A DNA stretch of 37,565 bases from Trichoplax sp. H2 (lineage: Eukaryota), in assembly GCA_003344405.1 (NCBI GenBank), contig NOWV01000126.1, forward strand, positions 186,001 to 223,565. Reading direction: 5' to 3'. Both the position numbers and the translations under genes were made by a program. Under the pieces are notes generated by a model. The model made no database searches, was not told the DNA's origin, and worked only from the letters and a program-made list of their open reading frames with translations. Each line of letters starts with the position of its first letter. Within the stretch, counting starts at the first letter, position 1. Positions 13,201 to 37,565 of the stretch are shown here, in pieces.

Positions 13201-16200
13201 AGAAGTAATCACTATAGTAGTTGTTCTTGAATTATTATTCCATGCATTATTCCCTAAACAAAACATTCATCCAAAGTCCTTAAATTAAGGCACCATTCAT
13301 GAATACGAATGTTTTGTCGGTAAGTGATGGCTACTTTTATCTACCTTTCTATATTAGTAATACTAATTACTGCTAGTCTTATTAGACTTATACAAAAATA
13401 AGTAAAACAGTTTGATAGAAATATATAATGCTCCCTTCATAGTACGCTGACCTGTTATAGAGGATATAACTTTTAAAAATACATGAAAAGCTATTTAGTT
13501 TGAAATAATTTAGAAAACAGTAAATTTATATAGATTTCAAAAGGTATCTACCTCATAATAATTATTACCATGCTATATTATTATAGATAACTTGAGATAT
13601 TTCCTGTAATAAATCAAAATTTTACGCTACAGAAACTTGGAAGATCCAATTAGGTACCGTACTAGCCAAATAATTGAGTTTGTTCTGGACTGCTAATCAT
13701 TCTTGAATTACATACTGACATTAAAAACAAATTAAATTCCATTCTCATCGGTATGCTTTATGGGATGAAAAATTAACATTGATTACTCACCTTTGTTAGA
13801 TTATAACTGGAAATATGGTTTGACTGACTGATTAAGCTAATGCAGTTGCGCTGCACACTACATAGTCAATATATGGATGAAATAAAAGTAAAATAGCTAG
13901 CAATTCTAGCTTGAGAGTCATCATCACATGCGGGTCAATTCTATGAATAGTATAAGCGTTGCATATTTTCATTGACATCATAGTTCGATCATTTTATATA
14001 TTGCATGGATACGGTAATATAATTTAACCAAACCCTACCAGCACGTATAAAATAAAAATTTTATGCAAGTGCTATTAGTGGTAAGTATTCTTAGCTTAAA
14101 AGCGCTGATAAGTTACTTAGTCCACAATATCTTAATTATGTTAATATTGAAAATCAAGATAATAATTGATGATAAATAATACTAATGAAATAAAAGCAAT
14201 TAAAAATTGTCATGTTTAGATTTTGCAAAGTTTTAAATTACCTCGATTCTAATCTACTAAATTTTATTAAATTTTGTTATAACTTTTGGCGATGAAGCTG
14301 TAAAATTAATAATATTTTTTAAAATTCTTTTATAAATTTACTAACTTAAAAAGAATCTATTTATACGTAGGAATAAAGGATACGGTATCGTATTCTATTG
14401 CGGGATTATAATTTTCGAAAAGGATAAGTTAACTGCTATCGTACCTTTCCCTGTTATGAATTACAACTTGAACCAAAAACTTAATGCAACTTTATTAATT
14501 ACAATTTTAAAAGGATAAATCAGAAATAAATGGTTTATTTAAGACGTATGTTTGCAGAAGTCTGATGTCATATAAATTAACCATTCCTCTGGATTGTAAT
14601 ATATCCCAAGACAAATTAAAATTCCAAATACTATTCAATTTATGTGGGTTATAATTGAAAGGAGATTTATAAAGTCTCCTATTCAATTTCGGGATTGCAA
14701 TTTACAATAAGCAAAGTCTTGCTAAACTTGCTTTTAGGAGATTAAAAATCATGCTATATATAGAAATTGTAACAATAGCGTGCCATTAAAGGTTTTAGCT
14801 CAAGAGTGATCCTATTCATAATTAAATGAACAACTTTAATCTACGGTATAATTATTATACTCCGTAAAAATTATACAGAGCAATAGGATTTCGGAAATTA
14901 GTATCTGTACTATTGCCTCAATGCTATTACATCTATGCTAGTATTGATATTGCTAAGCTAATCTAGGCTGTAGGAGCTTGGCGATGCAATTCTTAGTTAC
15001 CACGCTTCCTTTAGATTCTCAGATAACAGCGATAGACTGTAATATAACTGAAATAATTCTAAAGAAATTTCATCAACGTCGTTTATTCATCCTTTCATAC
15101 GTATCTATAGGCTTAAATAGATCCTTATAACTGTTTTAAGTACCGAGGCAAACGAAATCGTGATTTTACTAAATTATCTAATTATGGAAAGCCAAAAATT
15201 GTTAATCTTACACCTCTTGAAGTTCCAAACATTCCTATAGAATTACAGAGTATCTATCAGATAGCTAAACCTAAGTAACTACAAATATAAATTTTAATGA
15301 ATTCTATTCAAGGTTACAATTTAGAATATGCAATCTAAGAATAATAAATTCTGTTTGATTGTATATTATTATTTTACCACGATAATCTACATTAATTAAT
15401 TATAACGTTCTAGTGGGGATACACATGTTTACGTTATAACGATATATTTTTTTAGTGTTTGTTATTAAAGGTATTTGCCGTGATCAACTATTCTTTCTGC
15501 TTTGCTTTATTAAAGATATGGGTAAAATATATTAGATTAGGAGAATAGGCTAATAAATATCTAACGCATTGAAGTTGTATTTACTATTGTGTTGGTGAAC
15601 AGTTTACATTGGCATACTTTGTACATATGCTGCTCAGTTAGTAAAAATGAATTTAAAGTTGTGAGATCTCCTGTACGAGATCGAGTGCTAATATTTGGTA
15701 GCCTCGAAAATATACAAAACCCTAAGGTGGCGTAATATACAGGAAGAATAAATAATTGTTTTTGTTAACCGTGATCTATTTATTTGTATTGCCGAAAGTA
15801 AACGATCCACCTAATAACAGTCACCGAAGCGTAATTCCACAATCCGGGGGGCGGTGGCCCTAATTATAAGGGTCGCTCTAAATATCCGTTAATCAGCATT
15901 ATGATTGACGTCATTACCGAGAGAAATATTTGCTGTTATATTAGAGGAATTTCTGTATGGCTGTATCACAAGAGCAGTTGTGAGAATGATTGATCGCAAA
16001 CGTCTAAAGTCTACGCTAAAACAATATTTCAACGTAGAAGTTCTGTAAAATTTGCCCTTCCATAGGCGTAATAAACTTAAAATTTAATACCGATACGCTG
16101 CCTGGCCTAGTTATCACAAATTGAATAGTATATATTTCACTTTTTATCCGTCTACAATTCGTTCTCTACTTTGCTAATAAAAATAATAAAAAGTTAAATC

Positions 16201-19200
16201 ACTGTCTGATACTCGATGTTCGAAATATTTATTATTTTGATTCCTGTTATTTAGTCATAAGCAACTTGGTGCTACCGATTCATGATGCTAATTTTGTGTA
16301 TTTGTAATAAGAGCTATTCTATTCTACTTTAAGACAGTCTCTCAATAAATCATTTTCCAGTCATAATGGACGAAATAGTTTACTACTTAAAAATATTTAT
16401 TATTAAATTTTACAGAGTACTACCTAGACAATATGATAAGTAGCAGTATACGGCTAGGCCGCAGACTAATAATTTCGCTCCTAAAGAAATAAGTCTTCCT
16501 AAGCAGGTTTCAATACCGAAATCTACTGACGCTGCTTACCGAGGCACCTTGTCTCCTCACTTAAGAGTATTGCTGACGACTCTACTTTATCTACTAGTGG
16601 CACTTAACTATCCCAGCGCCATTAGTAATATTTTTAACACTACAAATCCTCATCGAACTGGTACCGCCATCTTACCACTCATCATTGGGATCTCTATTTT
16701 ATTATAAAATTTATCTCCTATAGTTCTGGTAAGTTATATACACACTTGTCGAAGCACCCAGCTCGCAATACTTCGAATAACTATTTGCTGACTTACAGAA
16801 CATTTCAACGTATCTGCTGAGTCAAGTTTAACAACTGCACGATATTCGACTGTCAATAGGATTATTCTTAGTAATATACTCTCAATCTAGCGTGCAAAGC
16901 TGTTAAGTTCTAATTTACTTTACGAAGGTTACGAGTCCCGGACTATCAGATAATCTTTTAGAATGTATGTATGTATGCTAAGATATCCCTAGTATCTGAT
17001 TATATCCGATGTTGGAAAGGTGGAAAGGTAGTGAATAAATCAATTTAACTCTGTTTTTAATTCGAGAGAAATGAAGCAACTATAGAAGAACAAAATTTAA
17101 CAAATATTAATGCCATAATATCTTGTAATCCTATAGTGCATTACAACTACGGTTAATAATATCTTGGTACAGTACTAGAACTGCACCCTAAAAGCACGTT
17201 ATCAACTAGCGTACATTATAAATGTAAGGTTGTTAATTTGTTTATTGAATCCTTGGAGCAATCATCTCCGACTTTCTGCGTAGGAAATAGCTTCTATCGT
17301 AGGATCAATATAATCATAAGATGGGAGCGTTAGAACTGGTATAGCTTGCAGAATCAAGTATTACATTTTGGCATTAGTTTTGTTAATAAAGGATATGAAA
17401 GGCTTGCTCTTTTAGGATGAAGTTCAGTCAGAGAAATCAAGCTGCGATTGATTTACGTACTCTAAGATTTACTACAATAATGTTCAAAAAATAATTTTAA
17501 CCCTTTACATTTGAGAGACAAATTATTTAGTGATTGGTTCAGACTAGCGCTCGAAATAGTACGGTACTCTACAGTATTACAAACTGATCTGATAATCGGA
17601 GTACATCATGAGCTATCCCAGTTCCGCCGCAGTCAGCAAACTAAAACAGCAACAGCGATAGCACTATAAAATACTATAGAATGGAACAATTTATTTTTAC
17701 CTTCGCTGTATCATGTATATGGACTCTGTGGTGCGGATATTGAGGTGTGCACCACATGCAATTTTGGATTCGATTTCTGCCCTTTCCCCCCCCCCCCACT
17801 TTTTCCTTTAAAAAAACTAATCTAAAGTCTATCTTTAACAAATGCACTGTACTAGTAATCTGTAGAAAGTTGGTTGATGTAGGAAAACTGGTTTGAATGC
17901 TTACCATTATTTTGTACTTTTTATAAAAAAATAACGAAATAACTTATTTTGGGGGCAATTATTCTATGTGGTAGTTGTCTTTTCGTGAATATAAGCGGTA
18001 GCTGTAATTCAAGAAGAATTATCCCAGCTGTGGCTTTGAGTATATGTTAGTTATAAAAAGTTCTTTTGTAGCAAACTCGAACTGTGATACAATTAGATTG
18101 AATTAGTACATCATATTAATTAATAAAATGATTTCGAGGTATTAATTTTGTTAAAATGAATAGCTCTAATTGCCCAGAAAGCAGCATACATCATGACGGC
18201 ATGATGGCTGTACTGCCTTTATAAGATACAGCAGTCATGATGTGGTTTATCTTTTACTTGGCTAAATTATCCTCGTTTTAATATCATAAGCTGTGATGTT
18301 AATATATACTGTGACTTGCAACAAAAGTCCCATAAATAACCAGCAATGTTTAATGTGCTCTTAGTATGCGAACAAAATACACTAAGGTTTTACTTCTATT
18401 TCTAAAGTTTATTCTTTAGTAATTGTCTATAAGCCTTTGTGCTGTATAACAACAAAATAAAAAAGGCGTTTCTAAAGGGACTTCATTTTTTAATCATATT
18501 TAAATGGATAGGCTAGTTCTTATCCATATTTTATGAAGCTTCCATAGCTGTTGGCGACTAAGAAACCACAGTCAAAATCTGAATTGAATATTATATTTTC
18601 ACAGTAATGGATTCTCACATGAATTATAAATTGTTAATCAATATTTAATGAGAAATAGTGAAACTTAAAATCACTGTAATAAGTATAATAAATCCTTATT
18701 AAAGATGTTCCATAGTTTTTCTTAAAAAGCTGTTGAATTAGACAGGATTCTGAAGTATTGTTCTTATCTAAAATCGTAAAATCTTTGTAATCGGATGTGT
18801 AAATTGATGCATGACTATATAAGAGACCTCTCTAATAATAAAGAATAATGTTAGAATTTTCTTAAACTATGCACTAAACTGTTGCTACAGTTGTCGAGGA
18901 GACCAGTAACCTGTACATTATAGGTTTATCCTTCCATATTTACAATGCAAATTAAAGAGTTCAATTAAATTTGTTACAGATTTTTTCGTGCTGTAAAGCT
19001 CGATTTTATATACACTCATTACTAATTTAACTTCCGTAATAATTATAATATAAAGAAATTATTATAATGTATCAGCATCGTTTCTAGCGTGCATAACATC
19101 TATCATTATTAGCTAGGCCTTTCTAAATGAGTTAAGACAGACACTGTTCCAGACTAATGGCTGCAGTGAATAGGTTTAATAATCGTTAGGTTATCAATTC

Positions 19201-20029
19201 AATAAATTAAAATTTCAGTTATTAAAACTGACTAATTATCTAATGCCACAAAATTAGGTTAACGCCGTTTTTCAACCTTACAGATATCGTTTATTAATAT
19301 CAGTCATCAAGAATAAAAATTCACTTTTCTTTTCCTCATAAAAGTAGTTGAAAGTGGCTGAGATAAAACGAATAATTGACTTAAAGCCTCTACAACAACA
19401 ATTCAGTACAACTTAAGAATCATATAGGTGCACTATATAAAATCTAACTTAAAATAGCTGTCAGCTACGGCTTTATAGGAATCCAATAGCTAACTATACT
19501 GTTCATCATATCAGCCATCACACCATCATTTTATTAACTATAACAGTTTATCGTCCTTTCTATTACCGTAATTAGCTGAAATTACTATAATATCAATAGT
19601 GATAAAGAAAGATTTATGCTTTATTAGTAAATAAAATAAAATAAATAAAAATAAGGCAGCATGCACCCTATCTTAACTGAACAATTTTCAATTAGAAATA
19701 TTTTTATACAATTTATTAGTTGAAAAATCATTACCAATCATCAAACAAAGGATATTATTAGAAATATTCTTTGTTCTAAATCAATTGCACATTTGCTTAA
19801 GATTACCGTATTCAAACTTAAAGAGGTAGACTTTAACTTAGGATAAAGGAATAGCATGTCATAATTCTACTGTAAAATAAATTTAGCATGATTTTTTTCA
19901 TATACTGTTTCTGTAAGTTCACTCTTAAGGGCTTGCAATCATGCCAGATATTTCAAAGTCATCGTAGAAGATGATTATTGTTAGTAATGCAACGTAATTT
20001 GAAAATCAAAGACCATTTAGCGATTAGTC

Positions 20030-21136
20030 TTAGCCGATAAGTCCATCTTTACCAACGCTTAATGTATTTGGGGACAGGTTAGGTTTGTATGACACAAATA
20101 TTTTACGACGGTTATGGGAAAAAAATGTATTTGTAAATTGAGCAAGAATATTTATGCATCGACGGTGAATGTTCTTATCAAACTTCATCAGTAGCATTGG
20201 ATTTGCAATAGAAGTACTAGCAGAACAAGAAACGGCAATAGTACACAGTACGAATAAAAAGGTATTTTTTTTTTCTACATCTTCGATACCAACACCCGAG
20301 ATTGCTAGCGCTAAGGCCATAACTAAAAAAGGCCAAGACATGATAGCAAATGCTGCTGTAACAATCACTAATGTTTTAATTAATGCTTTGCGTTCCATCT
20401 GCGTTAAGAATTTTCCTTGAAAACTATTTGAAGTGGTATTTTTCGCTAGGGATCGTCGACGAATGCCTTTTATCCAATAATGATAGATTTTTACATATAA
20501 TACAGCCATAGTAATTATGGGAATTAGATACAATAACAATGTAAGCAGTAAAAAGTAGATAACACTGATTACGCCGCGATAGATTATTCCACAAGTACTA
20601 TCCGTTCCTGATATGGCCCCAGTGACGATTGCGAAAGGAAGTGCGCCCATAATACTAATAATCCAAATAAGGACGATAACTGATTTAATAACAGATAATT
20701 TCTTGTTTCGAGATGGAAATAGAAAAGGTTTGAGAATGGATAGATATCGATCGATGCTTATAATTGTTAAACTTAACACTGAAGCCATGTATGATATTCC
20801 AGTACCTACCGATAATGCTCGACAAATAACGTCTAAACTGAAAAATGATATCGTAAAGCACGAAACGATGGAAAAGGCAATAAATAAAGACGCCGTCATA
20901 ATATCACAGGTTACCATATTGCCGATGAGATAATATGTCGGTGATTTTGACCATTCTTTGCTTGAAAATATCGAATGAATTATAAGTACATTTAATATTA
21001 ACGAAATTAAGGCTGGAAAGGCAAAAGAGATTTGTGCTATTCTAAGAAACCGAAATACAGTCTCGTTGTACGTATTAAAATCATTATCAAGGCCTTCAGT
21101 AGTCTGATTAAACGTAGAGTGATGTGATATGGTCAT
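20030..21136 (-). CDS. Intronless class A (rhodopsin-like) 7TM G protein-coupled receptor, orphan (paralog 2), 368 aa
   Basis: Same architecture: NQT/NET glycosylation sites, LILNV, NMVTCDI, ICR, ISIDRY, LIWII..ALP, YLIP..LY, FAIMSWPF, ANPMLL; aligns end to end with the other two paralogs. Confidence 0.96.
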   Translation of the reverse strand: MTISHHSTFNQTTEGLDNDFNTYNETVFRFLRIAQISFAFPALISLILNVLIIHSIFSSKEWSKSPTYYLIGNMVTCDIMTASLFIAFSIVSCFTISFFSLDVICRALSVGTGISYMASVLSLTIISIDRYLSILKPFLFPSRNKKLSVIKSVIVLIWIISIMGALPFAIVTGAISGTDSTCGIIYRGVISVIYFLLLTLLLYLIPIITMAVLYVKIYHYWIKGIRRRSLAKNTTSNSFQGKFLTQMERKALIKTLVIVTAAFAIMSWPFLVMALALAISGVGIEDVEKKNTFLFVLCTIAVSCSASTSIANPMLLMKFDKNIHRRCINILAQFTNTFFSHNRRKIFVSYKPNLSPNTLSVGKDGLIG

Positions 21137-21275
21137 GGCTATTCAGTTAGTTATGTCAAACAGACTGAAAATAATCTTAATAAATATTGCTTTGCCTAAA
21201 TTAAATGGGATAATTCATGAAACTAAACTATTGAGTTAGTTTTAACTAGAAGCACCTCTATTGTGAAATTTTAAT

Positions 21276-21349
21276 ATTGGTTGGGCGGGTACGTGCTTTA
21301 AGTATTTATTGCAGCATGTGTATTTTAAAAATGTTGACAAGTGACGTAA
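21276..21349 (-). promoter_or_regulatory. Candidate proximal promoter motifs of GPCR paralog 2
   Basis: CCAAT on minus strand (ATTGG 21276-21280), GC box GGGCGG (21283-21288) and CRE-like TGACGTAA (21342-21349), 140-213 bp upstream of the ATG; motif matches only. Confidence 0.35.
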
Positions 21350-23761
21350 ATGCGTTTGAAGTAAGTTTTTAGATTTATAGCTCTTATACAAAGGTCTAAT
21401 TAGAATATTCCATTCATGTATAAGTCAGATAAATAGATCATTACCGGTAGCTAAGATGATTTTAATATCTGTAGCGCAATCATTGTTAGTGCAAGCCAAT
21501 ATTTATGTGTTCGTGATATCGTATAGCATGCTTATAATTCATTAATTAATAACATATATTACATTTCAAGTTATAGCTTTACAGATTTTATAAGCCTGAT
21601 TAGAATTAAAAAAAAATATTATGATTCAGCTATTATATGCCGAATTCATTTCTCGGATATCACACCCGATAAGTTCCTGTTTTTTATTTTGCAAACAGTT
21701 AGTTTCAACTCAATTCTCCGAAATAACCATTGAAGTGATTATTACGTAGCTAAAATGATAATTTTAGACATATAAATGGCAGCTTTCAAGGCATTATTGA
21801 ATAGAATACCAATTCATTAATGTGATAAAATCCGATCACGAAAATTCCAAAGTTGTAGAAAATTAGAACTTAATTAGATCTAATACAAAAGACAACGTAT
21901 ACACAGCTCTACTCTAGCCGAATAATACTACTGAAAAACTTCTAGAAAGAACAATCAGATAATCTAATGTCTCCTGCTTTTATACTCTCCTCAGCTTTAG
22001 CAGCTACAATCAGCATAGCAGCATTCTACCATATTTTACACATATTCAGCTTATTATTAGTTACAATATTTTACAGCGAAGTCTAATTAATCCAATATGG
22101 AAATGATTACAGTATTTTTCTAGACATACATTGTTCCTACCACTAAAAGTAGAATGAACTAAGCATATCCTAATATATGATTTGCAATTCTATTTCTACC
22201 TCTAACCTTATTAGTAACTCAAAATATTACTGTATATAGCCCATCTATAGTCAAGCATAGAGTTTATTCTTACAGTCTATAATTATGGCTACTAAATATA
22301 TATCTTGAGATATATATAGAAAAGACACTGCCGTGCTTCGTAATAAGCACGGCTAATAGCCTACAAGCAATTGAAAAATTTTTAAGAGAAGTCCTGTTTG
22401 AAATACGTTAGATAAGTTGTCATGCTGCCATTGGGCACTCATCTAAACATGATTGTTCCACGTAGCCTTAGCTCTGGATATTAATTAATTTAGATAAATT
22501 AAGAATATGCAGCTAGGTTTTATTGTTGGTTTTTGTAATAATTTCAGCTAATAACAGTACTTATGTGTTAGGAAGTACAGTGATAGTACGCGATGTAGAA
22601 ATGCATATCTTAATAAAGTAAGTCTTAATTAAGGCTTGTGTGATAAAATGGCTCCATTATGCCTGTACTATGTACTATAGAACGATACAGGTGATAGTCA
22701 TACTGATTATTGTTACTAAGAAATATACTGATACGATTGATGACTCATATGTAGAGGAGTATTTAATTATAATTTATATAAGTCGTAAAGAATTGTTATC
22801 GTAGAGGCTAGCCGATAAGAGTAATTGGCTTTAATTGCCAGTAAGTATTACAGTATTTACTTTTATTACTTATTGTTCAAGTCAATCATCCGGTTTCTTT
22901 CACGCACTTTCAACTGTTCTTATAAGGGGAAAAATTTTAATTTCTTAACCAATAGATGGGTACAATAAACGCTAACAATATGGTGTTGACTGTTTGTAAC
23001 ACGCTAGAGATTTTGCTCTACTTTAATAATGCAGAATTTTGAGTTACCGTATGGCAAACCTAGGGTTAAACAAGCCATGAACTGCAGTTTTAGACAATTG
23101 CTCGCATTTAGTAATAAATTTTATTTCTCTGCTTTGCTATTGATTAGTTTTATTGTCCAAGTAGACGACGCATAATAAAATACAGCAGTATTATTAAGAA
23201 AGGTTAGAATGACAGAGTTTTACATCGGATTTCAGATTATGAAATTTTATTTAACCATGTCATTATGCATTCTTTTATATGTATTGCTTTAAAAAAATAA
23301 TTTCCTTTGCTAAATAGACGGCTTCATGAAGCAAAATCAGTTCTTATATACCAAACCGGTATGTAATACGATATACTCAAGCATTCCAGATAAAATTAGT
23401 GATTGAAATGAACACATAGTTTTGCTACATTATTTAGTGTTACTATGAAAATATGAATTATTTTATTCAGGTAATAAGTCATATGTCAAAAACAATTGCC
23501 ATCTATTATTAGGAATCGTCAATATAATACCAATAATGGGATAGAGTTTGGAAATTTTCCAATTATTTTAACTAATAGTTGATTATATGCGAATGGAAAA
23601 AATTAAAATCCTCAGCTACAGGTCTTATTTCGAAATTGTACTTCTCAATATTAAGTACCTTCAGCCCTAATAATATCAGTTTTTTATTCTTGTATTTTAC
23701 CTTCGTGATTAATTTTCTGAATACCGGGCTACATTAGTAAATTTATTGTTAAACATAGTTT

Positions 23762-24404
23762 TGCTGTAAAATAGCTTTGCAATAAGAAAAGGTAATGTAC
23801 GATCATAAAGTCGATTCCCTGAACCACATATCAGGGAGCAATGTTTACTCTTTCAGGAACACTTTTCCTATACTAGTAGACTACAAACAGACTTGCACAT
23901 CTCGTATCTTACGTTAAACACTAATCTTAAAAAACTATCTTTATTATACGATATATCGCATTTATATATACTCTTTTACAACAGCAAAGACATATTAGTT
24001 AGCAATACTAATGTTGACACCTGCTAATGAATCAAAAGCTAATTTATCTACTGCTATCTAATGAAGAAAGCAGTATTTGTGAAGATAGAAATCAAATGAC
24101 TAATACAAAATTGTCAGATTATAATATGTCCTATTACGGAACATTTCTGCGATAATCTACAATCTACCATAAGTAAGTTACAAGCACTGTGATTTAAATT
24201 GTAAGAAGATTATTCTCGATTCGCTAATTAAACTACTAATTTTCAGTAGGCTGTATCTATATATAACAGCATAAAAGCTATTGCCATACTTAAAAATCAC
24301 GTATCTAAATTAGAAACTCTTTAAATAAGGAAAAATCAACAAAATTATCGTAATTTAGATATTTCTACTCTAATTTAGATATTATAGTTTATAGAGCTGT
24401 AAAA
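23762..24404 (+). mobile_element. 643-bp diverged copy of subfamily B (B3)
   Basis: Colinear with B1/B2 (TACGTTAAACACTAA, GTCAGATTATAATATGTCCTATTACGGAACATTTC, GATATTTCTACTCTAAT); decayed ends TGCTGT...CTGTAAAA; perfect TSD AGTTT (23757-23761 and 24405-24409). Confidence 0.85.
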
Positions 24405-25268
24405 AGTTTGTAAATACTTTGATTAAAAAATTCGTCATTAACTCATGCTTAATTGTATCTAAGTATCAGTTTTGCTAAAAATACTACAATAAACGAGAAT
24501 GTATATTAGAACCATCATTGCAATCATCTATTCTATGCAAATACTGTGCAAAAGATCATGATGTAGTCTTGTTGTCAGTTGTAATAGAGAGCTGATACCA
24601 TAATAATCTATTACAAGATTTAATTTACATTGATTGAATGTAATTTAAAAAGTGCCATATACCAAAGATAATGGCGAAAATTATAGAAATGTATAATTTT
24701 CATTTAATTATCTTGACTTCTTAATTTTTGAAAACATTCCACTGACTGTGAGTATGTTTCCTGTTTGATTTGTAGAATTAATTGAAATAAATAGTTCGAT
24801 TAAATCTTACAAAAGAGTGGTTAACATAAATATTTCTTACTTGGTAAGTAATATTAAAAATTGTAATTATTTTTTTTAGCTTCATGTAGAATGGATATTG
24901 CGTTCACCATCAGCATAAAATTTTGAAATGACTCTCAAAGTTTAATTTTAAAAAAATAAAATTGAATTTCTGTGATAAGGAATTCAAATACTAACCAGTA
25001 ACTACAATAAGAGATAGAATTATCTATTAAAAGGATTTTTACGTTAGATAAGAATTCTTATCAAGGATCTGATACGTAGTGATTGGAGCAATATCGAAAA
25101 TCCGAGATATTAAATATTTAAATCAGCTAAGTTATAGTTTATTGCATACTGATGAAGGTGGAAATGGCATGAATGACCCTTCTGCAGATGTTTCGTTTTC
25201 CTTTTGTGTTAGATTACAAAGTTTTCACCACATTGTAGTGACAATATCCATCATTTTTTGTATGCCAC

Positions 25269-25459
25269 TGTCACAACCCTCACTTGTGGCAAAGGAAAGT
25301 AAAGAACTCTAGTGTAGTTACTTAAAACTTGGGCTATTTCTCCCAGTACTTTCAGTTTCTATGAGAGAAGTATTTGAGAACTCGATTTCTCGGCTGATCT
25401 CCACAGACAACTGACTAATTATTACACTATTCTTCACGATATGAGTCTTGCCGTTTCTT
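25269..25459 (+). mobile_element. Left part of a related TGTCAC element (subfamily C), truncated by assembly gap
   Basis: Begins TGTCACAA exactly where the duplicated flank (25097-25268) diverges from its empty counterpart (25650|25651); same 8+7+8 left hairpin (TGTCACAA-CCCTCAC-TTGTGGCA); TTCACGATAT shared with B1; right end not visible. Confidence 0.75.
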
Positions 25460-25479
25460 NNNNNNNNNNNNNNNNNNNN
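25460..25479. other. Assembly gap (20 N)
   Basis: N run. Confidence 1.
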
Positions 25480-26540
25480 AAAATCCGAGATATTAAATAT
25501 TTAAATCAGCTAAGTTATAGTTTATTGCATACTGATGAAGGTGGAAATGGCATGAATGACCCTTCTGCAGATGTTTCGTTTTCCTTTTGTGTTAGATTAC
25601 AAAGTTTTCACACATTGTAGTGACAATATCCATCATTTTTTGTATGCCACCTATGTATTAAAACTTAAGATAGTAAGCATATATAAATTTATATAGAATA
25701 CCGTTGAACCTATAAAGTCACAGCATCAGTTTATCTTTTTCTATATAACTAAGTTAAGGTATTAAGTTACGGCTAAATAAAATTATAGCTAGTCTAATTG
25801 GCGACGTATTATTTTTTTCTAGTTTCTTATGGATGAAAAGATCGCTATTTTTTATGTTATCCAACAGAGAACATACTGAAGAAATGTAGCTAGTGGCAGG
25901 ATGGCTTGCCTTAGCTGATATACGTATCTCGAATTGTAGACTCATAATGTTAAGAAATCTGAAAAATCATGCAAATATTAGCATAATCTGCTAGCCCACT
26001 CATCAAGGTCTTAAACTATAATGTAATCAATGTATGCGTAATGATGTTCTATTCTAGTACGGGACGTATATAAGCTTTACCGCAGCAGCAGAGAGCACTG
26101 TACGAGTATTACCGAAGTTGCAAATATAGTTTTTTGGACATGAAATTCGTTGAAGATAGTACTAGCTGACATCCTATTTGTATACGAGCAGATTCGTGCT
26201 TTAAAGTCGTAAGCAAAGAATTAATTTCTGGTACAATTCCTTCATGAGCCACTTTATTGAAATTTTAGACTTAATAAATTGAGAAAAGTAGAAAACGGTG
26301 ATATCGAAATTTTAATGCAGTACTTATCTACTTCGAAGGTATTTTTTACTTCAGTATCTTTCCTATTTAATACATTTGATTAAGTGAGACCCTTAAAGCA
26401 GACTAAGCTAATTCGTCGAACGATCAAATGATACACCACTAAGTATCAGATCAATTGTGATGTACGGCTAAATTAAATAGATTGATTCTAAAGTATTTCT
26501 ATATCTTCCCCTTCTATGACTAAGGGTAATTAAAAGCCGG

Positions 26541-27061
26541 TGTCACAAAACAGCTTTGCAACAAGATAACGTAATCTACGATCAATAAGTCAATTCCTTG
26601 AACTACGTATCAAGGAACGATATCTGCACTATCACGAGCACTTTTGCTCTACTAGCAGACTACACAAAGACTTAAACGCCTCGTATTTTACGTTAAACAC
26701 TAAGTTGGACAATTCTTCTTTATTTCACGATATACTGCATTTATATACTATTCCTCAATAGTTCATGAGTCATAGTTAATACAATTAACATTAGAATCAT
26801 TTACTGAATTAGATATTAATTTTAGCTACTGCTCTCTTAATGCAGACAACAGTATTTACGAACATAGACATGTAATAACTAATACAGAATAGTCAGATTA
26901 CGATATGTCCTATCACGGAACATTTCCATGATAATTTACAGTCTATCATAAGTAAATTACANNNNNNNNNNNNNNNNNNNNGTTAACTAAATAAGGATAG
27001 TCTAACAGAATTATCCTAACATAGTTATTTCTACTGTAATACAGTATTTAACACTGTAACA
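26541..27061 (+). mobile_element. TG...CA non-coding element, long subfamily B, copy B1 (internal assembly gap; true length probably about 630 bp)
   Basis: Starts TGTCACAAAACAGC, ends CTGTAACA; perfect TSD GCCGG (26536-26540 and 27062-27066); empty site visible at 27449-27453; colinear with 30637-31264. Confidence 0.93.
26962..26981. other. Assembly gap (20 N) inside element B1
   Basis: N run; comparison with B2 suggests about 130 bp are missing. Confidence 1.
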
Positions 27062-27247
27062 GCCGGACATTGAGGTTTTTTATATGTATGATGATACTTT
27101 TAAGATTAATTTAGATTTTAAATTCTATATTTTTATTGCTAGGTACATATAAGTGAGAAGAATTCTAGGATCGAAGTTGCTCTTAGTCTGACATATGCCT
27201 ACATCAAAAACTTGGTAATTCTTTTCTTAAAAATTTTACATAAAAAT

Positions 27248-27267
27248 NNNNNNNNNNNNNNNNNNNN
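27248..27267. other. Assembly gap (20 N)
   Basis: N run. Confidence 1.
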
Positions 27268-29073
27268 TATCTTTCCTATTTAATACATTTGATTAAGTGA
27301 GACCCTTAAAGCAGACTAAGCTAATTCGTCGAACGATCAAATGATACACCACTAAGTATCAGATCAATTGTGATGTACGGCTAAATTAAACAGATTGATT
27401 CTAAAGTATTTCTATATCTTCCCCTTCTATGACTAAGGGTAATTAAAAGTCGGACATTGAGATTTTTTATATGTATGATGATACTTTTAAGATTAATTTA
27501 GATTTTAAATTCTATATTTTTATTGCTAGGTACATATAAGTGAGAAGAATTCTAGGATCGAAGTTGCTCTTAGTCTGACATATGCCTACATCAAAAACTT
27601 GGTAATTCTTTTCTTAAAAATTTTACATAAAAATGACTTAATTTAAATTTACCGCTAAGAATTGATTGTGACATTTTAAAGCATGCTTACAATTTTCTAT
27701 CTGAATTCACTATATAATAATTGACTAAAATAGTATAGCACCGTCAAAATTATTCCTATTCTCTGTTTAAGCATTGGAAAATTAGTATTCCTTATTTCAA
27801 CGCAATATAGGATAGGGTAGAAATACTAGAGGCATAAAATCAAAATCCTTTAATATCTAATTTTAAAATATTGTGAAACGTATGCAGCATAAAGTAATTT
27901 GTCCATTTTATAAATTTGAATAATTTAGAAAGGCAATTTTATGTTCGGATCTACTCCTTCTGATGTTAAGATTTAATTTTATATGTTAACGAAGCTATGG
28001 ATAGCTAGATAGCATTCTATGCATACATAATAAATAGCAAAGACATTATACTCAAAAACTAGCTATTCATACATCAAGTTGATACATTTTAAAGTATTCA
28101 GATATTATCATGTGACTTATACATGAAGATTGGCATTCTTTCGAAATAAGCTGACCATTATACGACAATTCATTGGACGGTGTAAAACTTATACTAGCTA
28201 TTTGACCTTTAAACCTCCATCATAAATCAGCAAGCCTAAATTATAAATATGATTACCGGTAATTAAGCATCATACTAATTAGAAAGTGACTTTAAACGAT
28301 ATTAGAGTTATTTCGATTGAAATCAAATGATCATTAATGCTGGTTTATTCCTTTGTAGTACCTCTAAATTTGCTACTCAAATCTGAGGTAGACCTAAAAA
28401 ATTGTAACAACGGCCCTACCTATAAGATTGTTCTTGCAGCAAAACGCTATTTTCTACTTATTACGGCTATAATTTAAACAAAATAAAAAATCAAGTTTTA
28501 CAGAAATATCTTACTTCGATATATATGATCAATTCATAATGATATAAGCATCAATTGTAGGTGATAACAAGAGGGTCTATGTTGAACTTTATACAAATTT
28601 GATAATTCTACGGCCAATTTATTACTTCAATTTCATTTACGAATTTAAATCATTGCCTTTAATATAAAATAATTATCGGTCTTCAAATTTCTAGCGCTTT
28701 TCTAAGATAGTCTATGCCGTGTATTTAGTTCGTGTCGTTAGCCATATGGATTGGCGTGCATTTTCCAGGTTTGATAGATAATTACAATTTTGAAACTAGT
28801 TATCTTAAAGCGTACTAATTAGACGTTCCACCTGTAAATCTTTTATTAAACCTACTGATATTGCAATTCAATATGTATCGACAAGAAAATAAACTAATTC
28901 ACAGATTATAATCTTTATAACTAATTATTTCAAGTTACTTTCGTATATGTTTATAGATCAAAACTTAAAAAAATTTTTATCTCAAAAATGAAAGTACATT
29001 TTTGTTTGCCGACATAAATAATATTATTATGCAATACGAACCAGTATAAATGTAAAGGTAGCTTTTGGTTAGT

Positions 29074-30147
29074 CTAAGTAGACAGCTTAGTTGCAGGCTT
29101 CACTGTGTTATTTTTGGCACGATTAAAACTACTAGTGCCATTATCTCGTAGTGTGGAGTTACTGCCATGTCTTTTCGTTATCATTGGTATTGATATTCGA
29201 GTACCAATGTTCTTGTCTATGCAAATCAATAGGATTGGGTTCACCACAGATGTCATGACTGTACTAGAGGCAGCAAATGCAGCAAGGAGGAACAGAAATA
29301 TGTTAGTTCTCAATAAATCTCGAATATCAATTCCAGTAACAGCCGTTCCTGATGCCATTGCAAAGAAAGGCCATGTCATCAATCCAAAAGCGCCAGTAAT
29401 TGTGATAAGAGTTTTAACTAGATCCTTTCTTTTAGAATTATTTAAAAAAGTCATATTTCTACTCGAAGAAATGTCTGAATGCGAAATAGTATTCATACGT
29501 GATCTTCTAACTAAATAGCGATAAATTTTAAAATATAGTATTAACATCGCAACTAGTGGAACTACATATAGCAGTGACGTGATGGAGAAGAAATAAATCA
29601 AATTAGACATTCCGCGATTAAGTATAGCACAAGACTTGTCTTCTTCTGATATAACACCAGTTACATATACTAATGGTATAGAGAATGTAATGCTAATCAA
29701 CCAAATCAACACTATAACCCTCTTACTGATGATTAACTTTTTAGATTGATAATGTGTTGATAAAGATTTTACTATAGTTTGATATCGATCGACACTAATG
29801 GCTACTAAACTCAAAATAGAAGCCATATATGTTACACCTGTAACATAGGACAAAGTACGACAAATTATATCGGCTATAACATAAGGTAAAGGAAATGAAG
29901 ATATAAACGGTAATACAGTAAATATGATCCCCGTAGCCAGATCGGAAAATACCATATTAGCAATGTAGCGGTACGTCGATGATCTTAGTAAGTCTTTGCT
30001 TTGAAAGATACTTCGAATGATACAAACATTTAATACCAAAGCTACGATGGCAGGTAATACGAAAAGCCGTTGGACAATTTGAAAGATTTGAAATGTTGAG
30101 GAAATATTAGGAGCAAGAGTTTCATTTTTAGTCGCCAATGCAATCAT
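29074..30147 (-). CDS. Intronless class A (rhodopsin-like) 7TM G protein-coupled receptor, orphan (paralog 3), 357 aa
   Basis: NET/NIS sites, LVLNV, NMVFSDL, ICR, ISVDRY, LIWLI..SIP, YVVP..LY, FGLMTWPFF, VNPILL; closest to paralog 1 (shared TWPFFAMASGxAVTGIDIRDL and ASSTVMTSVVNPILLI). Confidence 0.96.
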   Translation of the reverse strand: MIALATKNETLAPNISSTFQIFQIVQRLFVLPAIVALVLNVCIIRSIFQSKDLLRSSTYRYIANMVFSDLATGIIFTVLPFISSFPLPYVIADIICRTLSYVTGVTYMASILSLVAISVDRYQTIVKSLSTHYQSKKLIISKRVIVLIWLISITFSIPLVYVTGVISEEDKSCAILNRGMSNLIYFFSITSLLYVVPLVAMLILYFKIYRYLVRRSRMNTISHSDISSSRNMTFLNNSKRKDLVKTLITITGAFGLMTWPFFAMASGTAVTGIDIRDLLRTNIFLFLLAAFAASSTVMTSVVNPILLICIDKNIGTRISIPMITKRHGSNSTLRDNGTSSFNRAKNNTVKPATKLST

Positions 30148-30636
30148 GGTAATTCGTTTGATAAATGAAATAGTGAAAATTAAAAAAATTGGCAGATTAC
30201 ACGGTCATCACATATTAGAAATTATCAGTTTCTAATTTACATAAAAATTTATATTAGGTAATACGGACTCATTTACGAATGGAATGATTTAGAACTCGCT
30301 ATTACTTTAAACACTTCTTTTTTGAATTTACACATTGTTTCAAGTAATGAGTAGCTTTGTCTGCTCTAGTTACTATTACAATACTTTTATGATAACAGTG
30401 CAATCAAAATTTTCTTTTGTAATCAAGGTAAATATGCAACTACAAGAACTATTTGACCTTTATACTCTGCTGTACTGTTGTGCCAAAATTACAAAATGAT
30501 CAAAGGCTTTCCTGCCTTAGGAATACTTCGCCTTAAGGGATAGCATACCATTTAATCAATCGGGCGCCAAGGAAATTACCTGTTAAAAATATCTCTTACA
30601 AAACAAAATAATAAAAGGGAGTATAAATAAGTGGGT

Positions 30637-31264
30637 TGTCACAAAACAGCTTTGCAACAAGATAACGTAATGTTCGATCAATAAATCAATTCCTTGAACT
30701 ACGTATCAAGGAACGATATCTGCACTATCAGAAACACTTTTGCTCTACTAGCAGACTACATAAAAACTTAGATGCCTGGTATTTTACGTTAAACACTAAC
30801 TTTAAGAATCCACTTTATTACACGATATACTGCATTTATAAACTCTTCCTAAATAGTTCATGAGTTATAGTTAGTACGATTAACTTTGGAATCATTCACT
30901 GAATTAGATATTAATTTTAGCTACTGCTTCCTTAATGCAGACAACATTATTTACGAACGTAGATATCTGGTGACTAATACAGAATAGTCAGATTATGATA
31001 TGTTCTATCACGGAACATTTCCGCGACAATTTACAATCTACCATAGTAAGTTACAATCACAACGATTCGAACTGTAAGTAGATGATTTGTATTCCCTATT
31101 ATAACTATTAATTTCAGTATGTGTATATATATATCACTGTCAAAAAAGTCAGTGCTATATTAAAACACAGTATATTCAAGTTAGAAATTAACTAAATAAG
31201 GATAGGCTAACAGAATTATCTTAACAGATATTTCTACTCTAATAAAGTATATAACACTGTTACA
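30637..31264 (+). mobile_element. 628-bp TG...CA non-coding element, long subfamily B, copy B2
   Basis: Starts with the same 35 nt as B1, ends CTGTTACA; flanks TGGGT (30632-30636) and TGGGC (31265-31269), a TSD with one mismatch; TATA-like run near 31123 and AATAAA at 31241. Confidence 0.9.
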
Positions 31265-34200
31265 TGGGCGTTTACAATATGAAACATGTTTACAAAAACA
31301 ATACCACAGGAGTGAAAAAGCAAAATTGCAATTATAGCATACGATTTCATTAAATTAGCGCTAAACATACGTGTCAGTAATTAAAATTCTGAATAACCAT
31401 GTTTGCATTCGTAATATTTCAAAATACAACAGCCGCAAACACTAACAATTAAATATGTCGCTGTTGGAATTGAATCGTAAATGATAAACTCTGATCGACA
31501 CAGTATAAATGATTTCAGTATAGTTATCATGTATTTTTAAGAATTTTAAGCTGCGTAATGGATAATTTTAAGTGATACAAGATAATAATCACAGATTTTC
31601 AGTTAATAATATTATTGGAAAGTTCCGGACTATTAGTATAAGGAAGGCAAAGATAACGTAATTATCCAAAGAAAATATAAAAGTTAAGCAAAGTAGTACA
31701 CGCAATGGCCGAGTTAACTTGGCAATTATTCCAAGCATTCAAGCAGTCATTTCTAGATTATCAAAATGCTCAGAAATTCATAATTCATGATGCTTAATAT
31801 CGATGACCACTTTAGTGAAATAACCACCATCTAAACGTTATTTCTTAATTAGATACTGGCACAAATTAACTTTAGGTGAAGGTAACGTAAAGGAATGTCC
31901 TTAAGCTAAATTTTTGGACACCTGTCTATTACAAATATCTGACTAACCTGAATATCCCGTATGGTGTGCGTGCTTGCATAGTGTATATAACTAGCCACTG
32001 TAAAAGAAGAAAATTTCGTTAGAATCTTTTTATTAACTATATTGCTTCAAATTAAATAGGAGCCGTCTAACTTTAAACAATTACAATTCCGTTGCTATTT
32101 ACCATTCATAGAAATTTCTTATTGAAAAAATTCTCTGCTAATTAAGCTATTACAAACTAAAAATTTAATCATCTAATGACTTCCAACACAAAATAAAATT
32201 TGGTTCAATTTAACATAAAAGTAACGGCCTATCTAAAGTAGGGGAATATTTAAGGTGAAGGATTACATATGTAAACTTTATTAATTTTATCTTAAATTAT
32301 CACTGAGTTATTTGAGTCTATAACATTCTTTATTAGCTGTTAAGTTCATGCTGCATAAGATTATATTAATCAAGTAACTTACTTAATCATAAAACTATTC
32401 TTACAATAAAACACCGAAATAGCTACATTAATTGGAATTTGAATCATATTGTACATTTGTTGGCAATCTGATCGAGCAAAGTTTTCAAGAAAGGAGAAAA
32501 TCTCATTTAAAGAATAACTTTGCAGATTCTAATGCGGTCATTGACTTGATTATATTAATTTGAGTAAAACTCATTTTATTCGTTATTATTAATTGTTAGT
32601 AATGTATAACTATAAAAGGCAATCTATGATTTTTGCTTCATTCAATCTATTATTTATTTTATAATTCTTAAAATTTATAGTCTAATTTGTAGAATATTGA
32701 CTAACGATAAAATTCATCATTAACAATTCTATTAAATAATGAAGTTTCATTTCGCTGCTGAGCATCGCTTGTTAATATCATTTCGGAAAATCTAATGCTT
32801 AAAAAAGCACAATTGTTCACGTTCATAATTTTAATTGAACGCTTTAAAACAATTTTTGAAGATCTCTTAAGCATAATTCACTAAAAATTTTGTCTGATGA
32901 TGATATTTACGACATTGATGTAAAAATGAATAAATATGGAAAACATATATGTATCGCAAGTTTACTTTGATATCAAGGTCATATTAAACCGATAGGTTTC
33001 AGAATAATTTCTATGTTGAATTATTACATGGATTTGTCATGATGCAATATGTTGGCTCAATAAAAGGCAAAATAATCAATATAAAGTGGACATATACTTA
33101 TAAGATAATAGTTAAAGAAAGGAATTAGAAATATTAATTACTTTTCGATCCTTATGATGACTAGAATTTTGAAATTTGTAATGTCATCAGTGCAATTCAG
33201 AAGCCTATGATCTAAAGAATCTTTTGATTTACCTAAATTGTATGGTATTGGAGTATTAATAATAAATTCGCTCTAGAACAAGGATAATAAAAGAAGACAA
33301 TAGATAATAAGGAGCAGTAAAATACCCCAAAAATCGATATTACTGGAGGCTGATTAATTACTGTAATTGTAAACAGTATGATCTTGTATCTGCAAAGTAG
33401 TGAGCAATTCTCAGCTAATCTCATCACCAGCAATTTTTATATTGGTTAATTAGAATTATTAGTACATTATGATCGTGCATCAAATCCAGTAAATTTCCTG
33501 TGGCATGTCCAAAAATACCGTTGAAACGGCTCTATCCCTTCATAATACCTTTCCAAGTAAATTCCGCAAATTTTCACGAAATGAACTAAAATCTTAAGGA
33601 AATGAAAGAGTCTACTGTACATTAGAGTAATGTAACTTAGTATTGTGATTGTAGACTGTTATTCATGCTTAGTATAATGTACGGTAGCGTAACTTCTATA
33701 TTTATCCTAAGATATATTTGGTAGCCATAACTGTAGACTGTAGAGGTATAGACTCTATGCTAGAGTACAGATGACTATATACAGTAAAGTGTAGAGTTAC
33801 TAATAAGGCAATAGGTAAAAAATAGAACTGTAAATCATATATTAGGATATGGTTAATCCATTATACTTTGGTTGGTGTGAATAATGTCTACGTAAATACT
33901 GTAGTCGTATCCATATCGGATTAGTGATGGTCCGCAGTAGAATGGTGTTACTAAGAATAATTTAACTATGTGTAAAATAAGGTAAAAGAATGCCGTACGG
34001 ATTGTAGCTACAAATACTACGAAAAATATGAAAGCATGCAACTTTAGATTATTCAGTTAGTTCGTTGTAGAAGTCTTTAGTAGTAGTATTCAGCTAGACT
34101 AGAGCTGCGTGTAGTTAATCTCTGTATAAGATTCAATAAAGCTCTTATTTTTCTAAAGTTTGGAATTTCGTGATCGGTATATATCACAATTAGGTACAGA

Positions 34201-35847
34201 TCATAATTAAATGTGATTCTTTTCTTCAGTATTTCGATTAATAGTTTTCAATAGCTTGCTACATGAATCGTAATCGGAAATTACATTTCCGCTATTGATA
34301 AACATCTCAAAATAGATTGAATAATTTTAATTTGTAGACACTTTCTTATTTCTGATCGCTAAATTGAAATTTTAATTATTAAATCAAATGGATTTTTATC
34401 AATTTTTTTATTGAAGTAATTGGAAAAGGCTACTTTATAGAAATTTTCGATAAAGATTTACTGCTGCTGCCATGACCAGTTAAGAAAAAAATTGCTAGTA
34501 AGTGTTAGATCGTAGTTACAGCACGCCCACAAACTATCGTAGCATAACCTTTTCTTAATATCCTAAGATGCATAGTTAAAATAAAATAATGAATGAAAGA
34601 AGCATCACCTTATAATCTATTACTAATCGTAGGGTATCAAGACATAAATTTAACATTCTATAAAATTATCTATTAGCACAGACGTATTATAAAGTATAGT
34701 GGTTATTGCGTTTATGAATTTCCTCTATACAATTTCAATCTCCTCAACGAAGGCTCACATTTCGATTATATTTCGGACCAAGCTTAGGATAAGAAATTGC
34801 CATAAAAGTACTGTTCAATTGGTGCAGTTTCGAAAGCAATCATTAGGTTTGGTGAAGCCTGAGATCTTTCTGAAGCTTAAGAACTCACATTAATAATGCA
34901 TACCTCGATATTTAATAGTTATTCGGAGCACTTAATTTATTTCCGCTCAAAATTTTAACATCGAAGTCATCCCTTTATTATCCAATGATTATTTCTTACT
35001 CGCCAGTCTAATTGCCATTAAAATTGATATACTGGCAATTAATAGAATCATCTTAATTAAATTTGGATTCACTTATCGTTCAATTTTGATGACTAGATCT
35101 TAATAAGCAAATTTTTCGAATAAAGTAATGCATTCCTTTCAATTCTGCCTTAGGAGTTAAATTATCGCTAAAATCACCTAGTCTTCGTTGTGTAATCGGG
35201 TTTCCAATCGAAAATCAGTCTGGCATTAATTACATTTTATATCTATTAAAGTTTTTTACTGACTCAGTAGGTCAGCAATATATTGATATTGATAATGCTT
35301 TCAAATAATAATTAAAATTTTCTTCTATACAGATCAATAGAAGCTATAGTTTTACAATAGTAAATAAGTTCATTATGTATGGACAATAAGACTATTGCTG
35401 CACTACGTTGTTTAAGATGACAGAATTTATAGAAATCTTCTTGCTTACAATATGTCAGTGTTATGTCTTAGAAAATGCCATTATTTATTTTACCTACGGT
35501 CTGATTTCGTGAATAGCGAGAAGCAAGTTCTCTGAATAAATCTGTCTTGTGAACTATTGTTCAGTATATCTAGATGAACTTATAATAGGGTAATTCTAAG
35601 GCATAGTAATTGTAGCACAATGTCCTTAATAGATCCATACAACTGCTTAGGGTAATAATCTGTAGACGTAACTCAAAGTATGATGCATCAGACTAGTAAG
35701 CTTGTCGTCAAGTACGATAGTGCGTAATAAAAGAAAAGGTATCGTATTCTGTATTTAATGCATAACGTCACGTTTCAATCTATTAAAAAATATCAAAATT
35801 ATTTTTATCAAGAGTAGCAGACAACAAAACTAGATGGTATCAGCCAT

Positions 35848-36283
35848 TGTCACAAACCAACTTCGTGACGAGGATACCGTAAAATAAATCTCTAAATCTC
35901 TAAAAATCTGCGGATTCAGTATCCCTACTCACAAGAATTTAGACGACTTAGATTCTACGTTAAACTCAACTAGACAATTGAGAACTATTTTATTCAACTA
36001 TCTGACGGGTTTATATGCCCTTCTACAGCAGCTAACAATCATGAGTCATCTTATAAAAATACTTAGGTGAGAACATCTACTAACTAATTATTCACAGTCG
36101 GACTACAATATGTCCATTCACAGAATCATTTCAGTGCACATTACAGCACAGCATTAAATTTACTGTAAGACATTTATAATTAGAGTAATTCCTATTGTAA
36201 GTAACTAGTTGTAATATATTATCACTATATTATATTAACCAAATTTAGATATCTATTTCTTCACGGTAGTTCGTACCGTGACA
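35848..36283 (+). mobile_element. 436-bp TG...CA non-coding element (solo-LTR-like), short subfamily A, copy A1
   Basis: Starts TGTCAC, ends GTGACA; flanks GCCAT (35843-35847) and GCCCT (36284-36288), a 5-bp TSD with one mismatch; similarity to copy A2 stops exactly at these ends. Confidence 0.9.
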
Positions 36284-36855
36284 GCCCTTCATATCAGCTC
36301 ATTTAAGATTTATTAGTTTAATGAGGTAAATCAATGAATTACGCAAGACTTATGCATCTGGTAATACAATACTATAAATATTGTACTTGTATTCTTCCAA
36401 GATGTCATAACGTAAAAAACAAAAAATTATTGGGCTAATTATACATTATATTAAATGATCTAGATAACGGTATCATTTTGAAATTTGCATAAATTATATG
36501 ACTATTCATTATGATGCTTCAACTCTACAAATCTAAATCTTAGCATAAGCTATAACTTTACATTTGATAAGCTTTCCCATATCCGTATTGTTACTTTTTA
36601 AATATAATTGCTATTAAATGTTATAAATTAATACACTAATGACTTTAAATAAATTACAATAAATTAATCGCGTGATCGTCTTACTTAATATTTTAATGAT
36701 GGTTTTTAGCACGATCAGTTGCATAATTAATTCGATCATAAGTCGTGCTTCAAAGGCTTAATTCTAGAAATCCATTACTATATATAATTTGCTTGAAAAT
36801 ATATCGCTACCATAAATTATGCCATCATCATCTCAAAGAAATGGGTATATGTTTA

Positions 36856-37291
36856 TGTCACAAACCAGCTTCGTGACAAGGATAACGTAAAACTAATCTC
36901 TAAATTACTATAGTCTCCGGGATTCAGTATCCCTACTCACAAGAATTTAGACGCCTTTGATTCTACGTTAAACTCAACTAGACAATTTAGAACTACTTTA
37001 TTCAACTGTCTGGCGGGCTTATATACCCTTCTACAGCAGCTAACATTCACGAGTTATCTTATAAAAATACTTGGTGAGAACATCTACCTAACTAATTTTT
37101 CACAGTTGGACTACAATATGTCCATTCACAGAATCATTTCAGTGCACATTACAGCACAGCATTAAATTTACTGAAACACATTTATAATTAGAGTAATTCC
37201 TATTGTAAGTAACTAGTTGTAATATAATATCACTATATTATATTAACCAAATTTAGATATCTATTCCTTCACGGTAGTTCGTACCGTGACA
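36856..37291 (+). mobile_element. 436-bp TG...CA non-coding element (solo-LTR-like), short subfamily A, copy A2
   Basis: Starts TGTCAC, ends GTGACA; perfect 5-bp TSD GTTTA (36851-36855 and 37292-37296); roughly 90-95% identical by eye to 35848-36283. Confidence 0.92.
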
Positions 37292-37565
37292 GTTTAGTAG
37301 CTTAAAACTTAACTGTCAATGGCAACTTGTCTAATGTTCAGGAACGAAGAACTATCTCTGAAATTTACTAATGCATTCTAATGCAAGATACATATCTATA
37401 ATTACCAAGATCTATGCTACTTTAACAAATAAATAAGTTGCTTATTCCAATTTTCATTTTTACAATGAAATTTAGTTATCTGAAAAGTTCATATAATCGG
37501 TAAATTATCATTATTATAAAGAAAATTAAGAAGAAATGAAAGGGCAATTAATGAACGTTACGATT

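Follow-up and report, generated by a model that had tools for sequence, protein, structure and literature searches.

Probable solo long terminal repeats of recently mobile retrotransposon families among receptor genes of the placozoan Trichoplax sp. H2

We analysed a stretch of 37,565 nucleotides from the genome of the placozoan Trichoplax sp. H2 (contig NOWV01000126.1, positions 186,001 to 223,565), here referred to as the window, which contains at least eight copies of short elements belonging to four families, A, B, C and D. The complete units of families A, B and D are non-coding and 436-643 bp in size. The elements are integrase-type insertions with TG..CA ends, 5-bp target-site duplications (TSDs) and empty sites that keep one copy of the duplication, and their mobility is recent enough that three of the eight copies segregate as presence/absence polymorphisms. 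We consider it probable, at roughly two chances in three, that they are solo long terminal repeats (LTRs) of several related LTR retrotransposon families, uncatalogued and recently active, with the proviso that Repbase or Dfam may already list them. The parent elements would be of the Ty3/gypsy, BEL/Pao or Ty1/copia type, and the solo copies do not tell which. Elements of this kind are already known; finding them so abundant and recently active in a placozoan is mildly surprising.

Families, ends and empty sites

An original prediction, made from the letters of the window, had listed six copies in at least three subfamilies. All six were present with starts at 23762, 25269, 26541, 30637, 35848 and 36856, and they represent families A, B and C, whereas a fourth family, D, with two further copies, had been overlooked. 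The eight copies are located within 21.8-37.3 kb of the window, and seven of them are on the plus strand, antisense to the three receptor genes described below. The GC content of the window is 30%, and its sequence is interrupted by three 20-N gaps, at 25460, 26962 and 27248.

Family A is represented by two complete plus-strand copies of 436 bp, A1 (35848-36283) and A2 (36856-37291), which are identical at 407 of 434 aligned positions. Three plus-strand copies belong to family B: B2 (30637-31264), which is complete with 628 bp and present in contigs of three DNA sequencing runs (X1, X9 and X5), B1 (26541-27061), which contains an internal N gap (26962-26981), and B0 (23762-24404), an old copy of 643 bp. 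The left part of B1 is identical to B2 at 375 of 419 positions, and B0 is identical to B2 at 475 of 621 (76.5%). The single C copy (25269-25459, plus strand) is the 5' part of a family of its own and breaks off at the N gap of 25460-25479; a match of C to 6312-6362 (51 nt, 74.5%) was taken as chance. Family D comprises D2 (21821-22369, minus strand, 549 bp) and D1 (33646-34188, plus strand), a family core of 543 bp. The two D copies are 75% identical over 554 nt and both end in CA, D1 with ..CACA. High contig depth at D1 begins near 33650, and the left boundary of this copy is uncertain. If its start is moved 20 nt upstream, to 33626, an ATTAG/ATTAG duplication appears and the target site becomes the palindrome CTGTAC-ATTAG-GTACAG (33611-34203 region). 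Symmetry of this kind is typical of the sites targeted by dimers of an integrase or transposase.

The similarity between families A and B is confined to colinear blocks with 63-69% identity over 92-167 nt. Such blocks had been predicted. The motif TACGTTAAAC is shared by all five A and B copies, and TGAGTCA is found in two of the five. A palindromic AP-1/GCN4-type site, ATGAGTCAT, is located at the homologous place in A1 (36041-36051) and B1 (26763-26773), and A2, B2 and B0 have mutated versions of it. The site could serve as an LTR enhancer. The C copy starts with TGTCACAA, a motif with seven matches in the window against a chance expectation of 1.2. Five of these are element starts, and the two extra exact matches are at 1813-1820 and 27666-27673, both on the minus strand. 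Inspection by eye of these two sites gave no recognisable element end or TSD. The latter, at 27673, lies a short way to the right of the B1 target site, where an unrecognised element on the minus strand could begin. As predicted, no open reading frame (ORF) of at least 90 amino acids was found in any element.

The termini are TGTCAC..ACA in A1, A2, B1 and B2 and TG..CA in D2, the start of C is TGTCAC, and the ends of B0 are degenerate (TGCTGT..GTAAAA). Perfect terminal inverted repeats (TIRs) were 6 bp long in A (TGTCAC/GTGACA in A1), 3 bp in B1 and B2, 2 bp in D and 1 bp in B0, in agreement with the predicted maximum of 6 bp. In no element are the two ends related in sequence, with 7-18 of 40 positions identical in ungapped comparisons of the first 40 nt with the reverse complement of the last 40 nt. 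This counts strongly against the elements being derivatives of the miniature inverted-repeat type that descend from a TIR DNA transposon with 5-bp TSDs, such as Transib or the 5-bp hAT group. Small size, absence of coding sequence, a fixed TSD length and high copy number would suit such derivatives, but a test for inverted repeats of at least 10 bp found none beyond 6 bp, and the termini of Transib and hAT elements differ from TGT..ACA. We therefore consider this origin highly improbable.

A 5-bp TSD had been predicted for each of the five complete copies. The duplication is exact in B0 (AGTTT), B1 (GCCGG) and A2 (GTTTA) but imperfect in B2 (TGGGT/TGGGC) and A1 (GCCAT/GCCCT), which match at four of the five positions. 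The flanks of D2 likewise agree at four of five positions (TCAAT/TTAAT), and the left flank of C is GCCAC. For random pairs of pentamers from the window, the probability of a full match is 0.002 and that of a match at four or more positions is 0.026. The GC content of the TSDs is 47.5%, as compared to 30.5% for the window in the same comparison. Four of the eight TSDs conform to GCCNN or NNGGC (post hoc p = 5e-7), one of which counts only by virtue of its right-hand copy; with three of eight counted, the post hoc p-value is 4e-5.

The elements had also been described as hairpin-ended. Comparing the folding of 15 termini with that of shuffled sequences, we found this to be true of the 3' ends of family A (z-scores of -4.5 and -4.05, with none of 200 shuffles as stable), where A1 has an 8-bp hairpin 2 nt from its 3' end, and of one 5' end in family D (z = -4.2). 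The other 12 termini folded no better than shuffles (z = -1.33 to +1.13), and hairpin ends were accordingly rejected as a family-wide feature.

Precise empty sites were observed for B1, C and A2. At the C locus, the segment 25097-25268 is repeated at 25480-25650 with 132 of 132 and 40 of 40 positions identical and one 1-nt indel, and this second version continues directly into the right flank. At the B1 locus, the left flank (26355-26540) is repeated at 27268-27453 (184 of 186 positions identical) and the right flank at 27454-27634 (180 of 181). The empty allele (27268-27634) joins the two flanks via a single GTCGG, while GCCGG flanks B1 on either side in the filled allele. The N gaps are located exactly between the two haplotype versions at C and B1. 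Since both haplotypes are found inside the scaffold and one of them lacks the element, C and B1 are heterozygous insertions with precise empty sites. In the segments 25097-25650 and 26355-27634 the scaffold thus concatenates both haplotypes, one on each side of a 20-N gap, which means that parts of the region are assembly duplications and not real tandem repeats.

The empty site of A2 was observed in contigs from the DNA runs. Position 36850 is joined directly to 37292 in one contig of X5 (record 22) and one of X9 (record 29). The 441 bp skipped in these contigs correspond to the 436 bp of A2 plus the 5 bp of one TSD copy, from which we conclude that A2 is absent from them. The X1 contig on the left side of A2 ends exactly at 36850. 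Contigs that cover flanks of B2 and A1 in the DNA runs (records 2, 18, 23 and 21) continue into these elements, and records 2, 18 and 23 reach about 30 nt into B2. With TG..CA ends, 5-bp TSDs and empty sites keeping a single TSD copy, the integrase-type insertion that had been proposed for the elements was supported.

The copies also differ in how far they depart from the family consensus. B1 has the family-majority base at all six covered sites where B2 differs, B0 has it at five of eight, and A1 and A2 each have private changes relative to the family majority. The majority bases in B1, taken together with its heterozygosity, suggest that B1 is young and B2 older.

Abundance and surroundings of the families

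Contigs from the three DNA runs (2,994 for X1, 3,305 for X9 and 3,081 for X5) and from one RNA run, X17 (245 contigs), were mapped on positions 28000-37565 of the window at a likeness of at least 85%. The word depth of single-copy bins was about 50-77 in X1 (about 60) and about 22-49 in X9 and X5 (about 30). Summed depths in the B2 bins were 68,240-74,185 in X1, 40,631-52,813 in X9 and about 44,500 in X5. The corresponding values were 69,111, 34,973 and 35,690 for the D1 bin, and 20,875-36,072, 8,807-20,409 and 11,062-19,762 for the A bins. The ratios of repeat to single-copy depth agree among the three runs and were about 1,100-1,700 for B, about 1,100 for D and about 350-950 for A. Summed contig depth is not equal to copy number, and in terms of these depth ratios, which are not a strict copy number, each family has hundreds to more than 1,000 copies. 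If the ratios are near the true copy numbers, the three families would together amount to 2,600-3,800 copies and about 1.4-2.1 Mb, or 1.5-2.4% of a genome of 87-105 Mb.

The sequences surrounding the copies are heterogeneous. Consensus agreement was 0.41-0.43 both for the sequence outside the 3' end of B (45 and 40 contigs, with a median of 255 nt) and for the sequence preceding the 5' end of A (35 and 36 contigs), indicating that most copies are located in different surroundings. Such heterogeneity is compatible with the existence of full-length copies, since retrotransposon interiors of identical sequence would be merged in a single contig.

Junctions in the same orientation between the end of one element and the start of another were observed at single-copy depth for the combinations B to D, D to A, D to B, A to A and B to A, with an exact spacing that the mapping does not fix. 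The junction from the end to the start of A (36283 to 36856) was present in one, three and one contigs of X1, X9 and X5, respectively. Fewer than one chance adjacency is expected, as estimated by hand for about 3,000 copies in about 90 Mb. The junctions hint at targeted insertion next to existing copies.

In the RNA run, depth was 135-450 in the LTR bins and 3-7 in the receptor bins, and 11 of the 30 bins were without depth. The LTR signal is not evidence of transcription, since the ratio of repeat to single-copy depth in DNA is about 1000 and DNA carried over at about 0.3x would produce the same pattern. A scan of metagenomes with the 31-nt start of B gave no match. A degenerate 22-nt version of the A/B start gave one match (L001), which was dismissed as chance because the matching sequence has a GC content of 53% and is otherwise unlike the window.

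Origin of the elements

The LTR signature consists of the TG..CA ends in combination with a fixed 5-bp TSD, very short TIRs, a size of a few hundred base pairs, several colinear though diverged subfamilies, a high copy number and precise empty sites. If the elements are solo LTRs, a retroviral-type integrase would have inserted full-length cDNA copies, and the interiors would later have been lost by recombination between the two LTRs of each copy, leaving a single LTR behind. Integration would have been biased to GC-rich pentamers and to places that already held such elements.

The closest known counterparts are the delta and sigma elements of yeast and other solo LTRs of Ty3/gypsy, BEL/Pao and Ty1/copia retrotransposons, which have the same TG..CA ends, short TIRs and 5-bp TSDs. 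They are also alike in being non-coding, a few hundred base pairs in size, clustered in intergenic stretches and polymorphic for presence or absence, and solo copies far outnumber full copies in such families. The elements studied here differ from them in that no full-length partner was seen for families A-D and in that the window contains no tRNA gene or other obvious target. They also differ from known LTR systems in their placozoan host, for which active LTR retrotransposons are not reported in the available text of two genome studies (PMC2871265, PMC6057997; these and all other articles are cited from parts of their text). The most likely superfamily of the missing coding partner is that of the gypsy-like fragments of Trichoplax adhaerens, a member of the same phylum, which were assigned to the Tag and Mag clades and named Ta1-11 (PMC2871265). 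These fragments are degenerate coding sequences, with 53 gypsy matches and 38.7 kb in total, and no LTRs are described for them in the part of the article consulted (PMC2871265). Compared by description, the elements of the window are LTR-like units only, have a far higher copy number and are partly polymorphic.

Four observations weigh against solo LTRs. First, no paired copy, primer binding site (PBS), polypurine tract (PPT) or internal domain was found in the window, as the original prediction had stated. A Pfam scan of 116 of the 132 ORFs of at least 45 amino acids, from which 16 ORFs overlapping the receptor genes were omitted, gave no reverse transcriptase, integrase, gag or transposase, the only significant matches being three to 7tm_1. 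Second, all six uninterrupted copies are single units, including the polymorphic A2. Third, few coding LTR retrotransposons have been reported in Trichoplax, as far as the available text goes (PMC2871265, PMC6057997). Fourth, the only marks of a U3-R-U5 layout are TATA-like and AATAAA or ATTAAA motifs, which are present in most copies and are expected by chance at 30% GC.

An alternative is that the elements are LTRs of non-autonomous retroelements, such as terminal-repeat retrotransposons in miniature (TRIM), large retrotransposon derivatives (LARD) or small LTR retrotransposons (SMART). Pairs of them located elsewhere would then enclose a short interior that is non-coding and contains a PBS and a PPT. 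Copying in trans would depend on a rare autonomous element, and the copies in the window would be solo derivatives. TRIM and LARD elements are similarly non-coding, have LTR-type ends and TSDs and are mobilised in trans, so that the ends and duplications are the same as those expected for solo LTRs of coding elements. A high copy number alongside few coding LTR retrotransposons in Trichoplax would suit this origin (PMC2871265, PMC6057997), as would the junctions from A end to A start at single-copy depth, the spacing of which is not fixed and could accommodate a short interior. However, known TRIM and LARD elements have two LTRs around their PBS/PPT interior, and there is no such pair in the window. 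The sole candidates, A1 and A2, which are 572 bp apart, are not parts of one element, as the two copies are flanked by separate TSDs and the empty allele lacks A2 only. Nor does any PBS-like or PPT-like sequence adjoin any of the copies. On balance, we regard an origin from such non-autonomous retroelements as unlikely.

The original prediction had further argued that the elements may be mobilised on their own, on the ground that no interior is seen even for apparently polymorphic copies. This is true of A2, which is a contiguous single unit, but B1 and C are broken by N gaps. With two of the three polymorphic copies interrupted and their interiors not readable, the case for self-standing units is weakened. 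The N gap in B1 begins about 10 nt past the family-wide contig-break point at 31045, and this position makes the gap explicable by an ordinary repeat-induced break.

Self-standing LTR-like units would have no retrotransposon interior anywhere and would be moved singly by a DDE integrase-type enzyme acting in trans, possibly of the Ginger type. They would favour a GCC-biased 5-bp target, land head-to-tail beside older copies, and constitute a new non-autonomous class between LTR retrotransposons and Ginger DNA transposons. In favour of such units, every uninterrupted copy is single, even the polymorphic A2. To our knowledge, on the other hand, no enzyme has been documented to move single LTRs. 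There is also no transposase among the 116 ORFs scanned, and the empty sites are without excision footprints and may simply be alleles that were never hit by an insertion.

The comparison with Ginger elements, which the original prediction had drawn, bears on the same question. Ginger1 and Ginger2/TDD elements are inserted by an integrase-type enzyme and have TGTNR termini, with which the TGTCA starts found here agree, and the GC-rich TSDs, with GCCNN or NNGGC in four of eight, recall the CCGG/CCGT target preference of Ginger1 (PMC2836005). Ginger is moreover the largest group of DNA transposons in Trichoplax, with 0.3% of the genome (PMC6057997). The 5-bp TSD, however, fits only the Dictyostelium members TDD-4 and TDD-5, as the TSDs of metazoan Ginger elements are 4 bp, and the TIRs that define the group are 40-270 bp long, as compared to at most 6 bp in the elements of the window (PMC2836005). 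Because of these short TIRs, the elements are not Ginger-type transposons, and membership in Ginger1 or Ginger2 was rejected. Taken together, we find it rather improbable that the elements are self-standing units, and continue to favour solo LTRs. Retrozymes were also considered and rejected, as no hammerhead ribozyme was found and no Rfam family matched at E <= 1 in 21000-37565.

Placozoan repeats and the receptor genes

Placozoan genomes are cited as compact, poor in transposable elements (TEs) and devoid of active ones, with which the recent mobility observed here would contrast. In the text consulted, Wang et al. 2010 (PMC2871265) report a TE content of 0.13% for T. adhaerens, list 56 fragments and find neither an active TE nor any LTR retrotransposon with more than two copies. 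Their methods, as described there, were tblastx searches against Repbase, LTR_FINDER, which relies on paired LTRs, and MUST, which detects miniature inverted-repeat TEs. None of these methods sees solo LTRs, which gives the reported scarcity a blind spot (PMC2871265). Kamm et al. 2018 (PMC6057997) give a repeat content of 6.6-6.7%, most of which is "unclassified", and 0.11-0.16% for LTR elements. The Hoilungia genome of 87 Mb, with a heterozygosity of 1.6%, was masked with a T. adhaerens repeat library only (PMC6067683), and Kim et al. 2025 (PMC12221973) used EDTA to annotate the repeats of placozoans and include a discussion of Mutator elements, as far as the available parts of these articles go. 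A literature search, which covered neither Repbase and Dfam nor paper supplements, retrieved no publication that deals with solo LTRs or polymorphic TE insertions in placozoans.

Should the depth ratios be close to the real copy numbers, a part of the "unclassified" placozoan repeats would be LTR-derived and recently mobile, and would have been out of reach of the methods on which the "inactive" verdict rests. The insertions also provide ready-made presence/absence markers for studies of clonality and sex in placozoans.

The only long ORFs of the window are three intronless genes for class-A, rhodopsin-type receptors (7tm_1), all on the minus strand and located at 3162-4220, 20030-21142 and 29074-30204. 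The best named homologue of the third is a T. adhaerens protein with 62% identity over 82% of the query. The three genes are paralogues in a dispersed tandem array, and the repeat cluster is located between and downstream of the second and third genes. Promoters or enhancers of LTRs could matter at such a location. No tandem repeats were found in the window. One X17 contig of 1529 nt (record 9) spans 28000-28234 and 29042-30052, with 48 unplaced letters in between, which points to splicing or variation in the 3' region of the third receptor gene's transcript.

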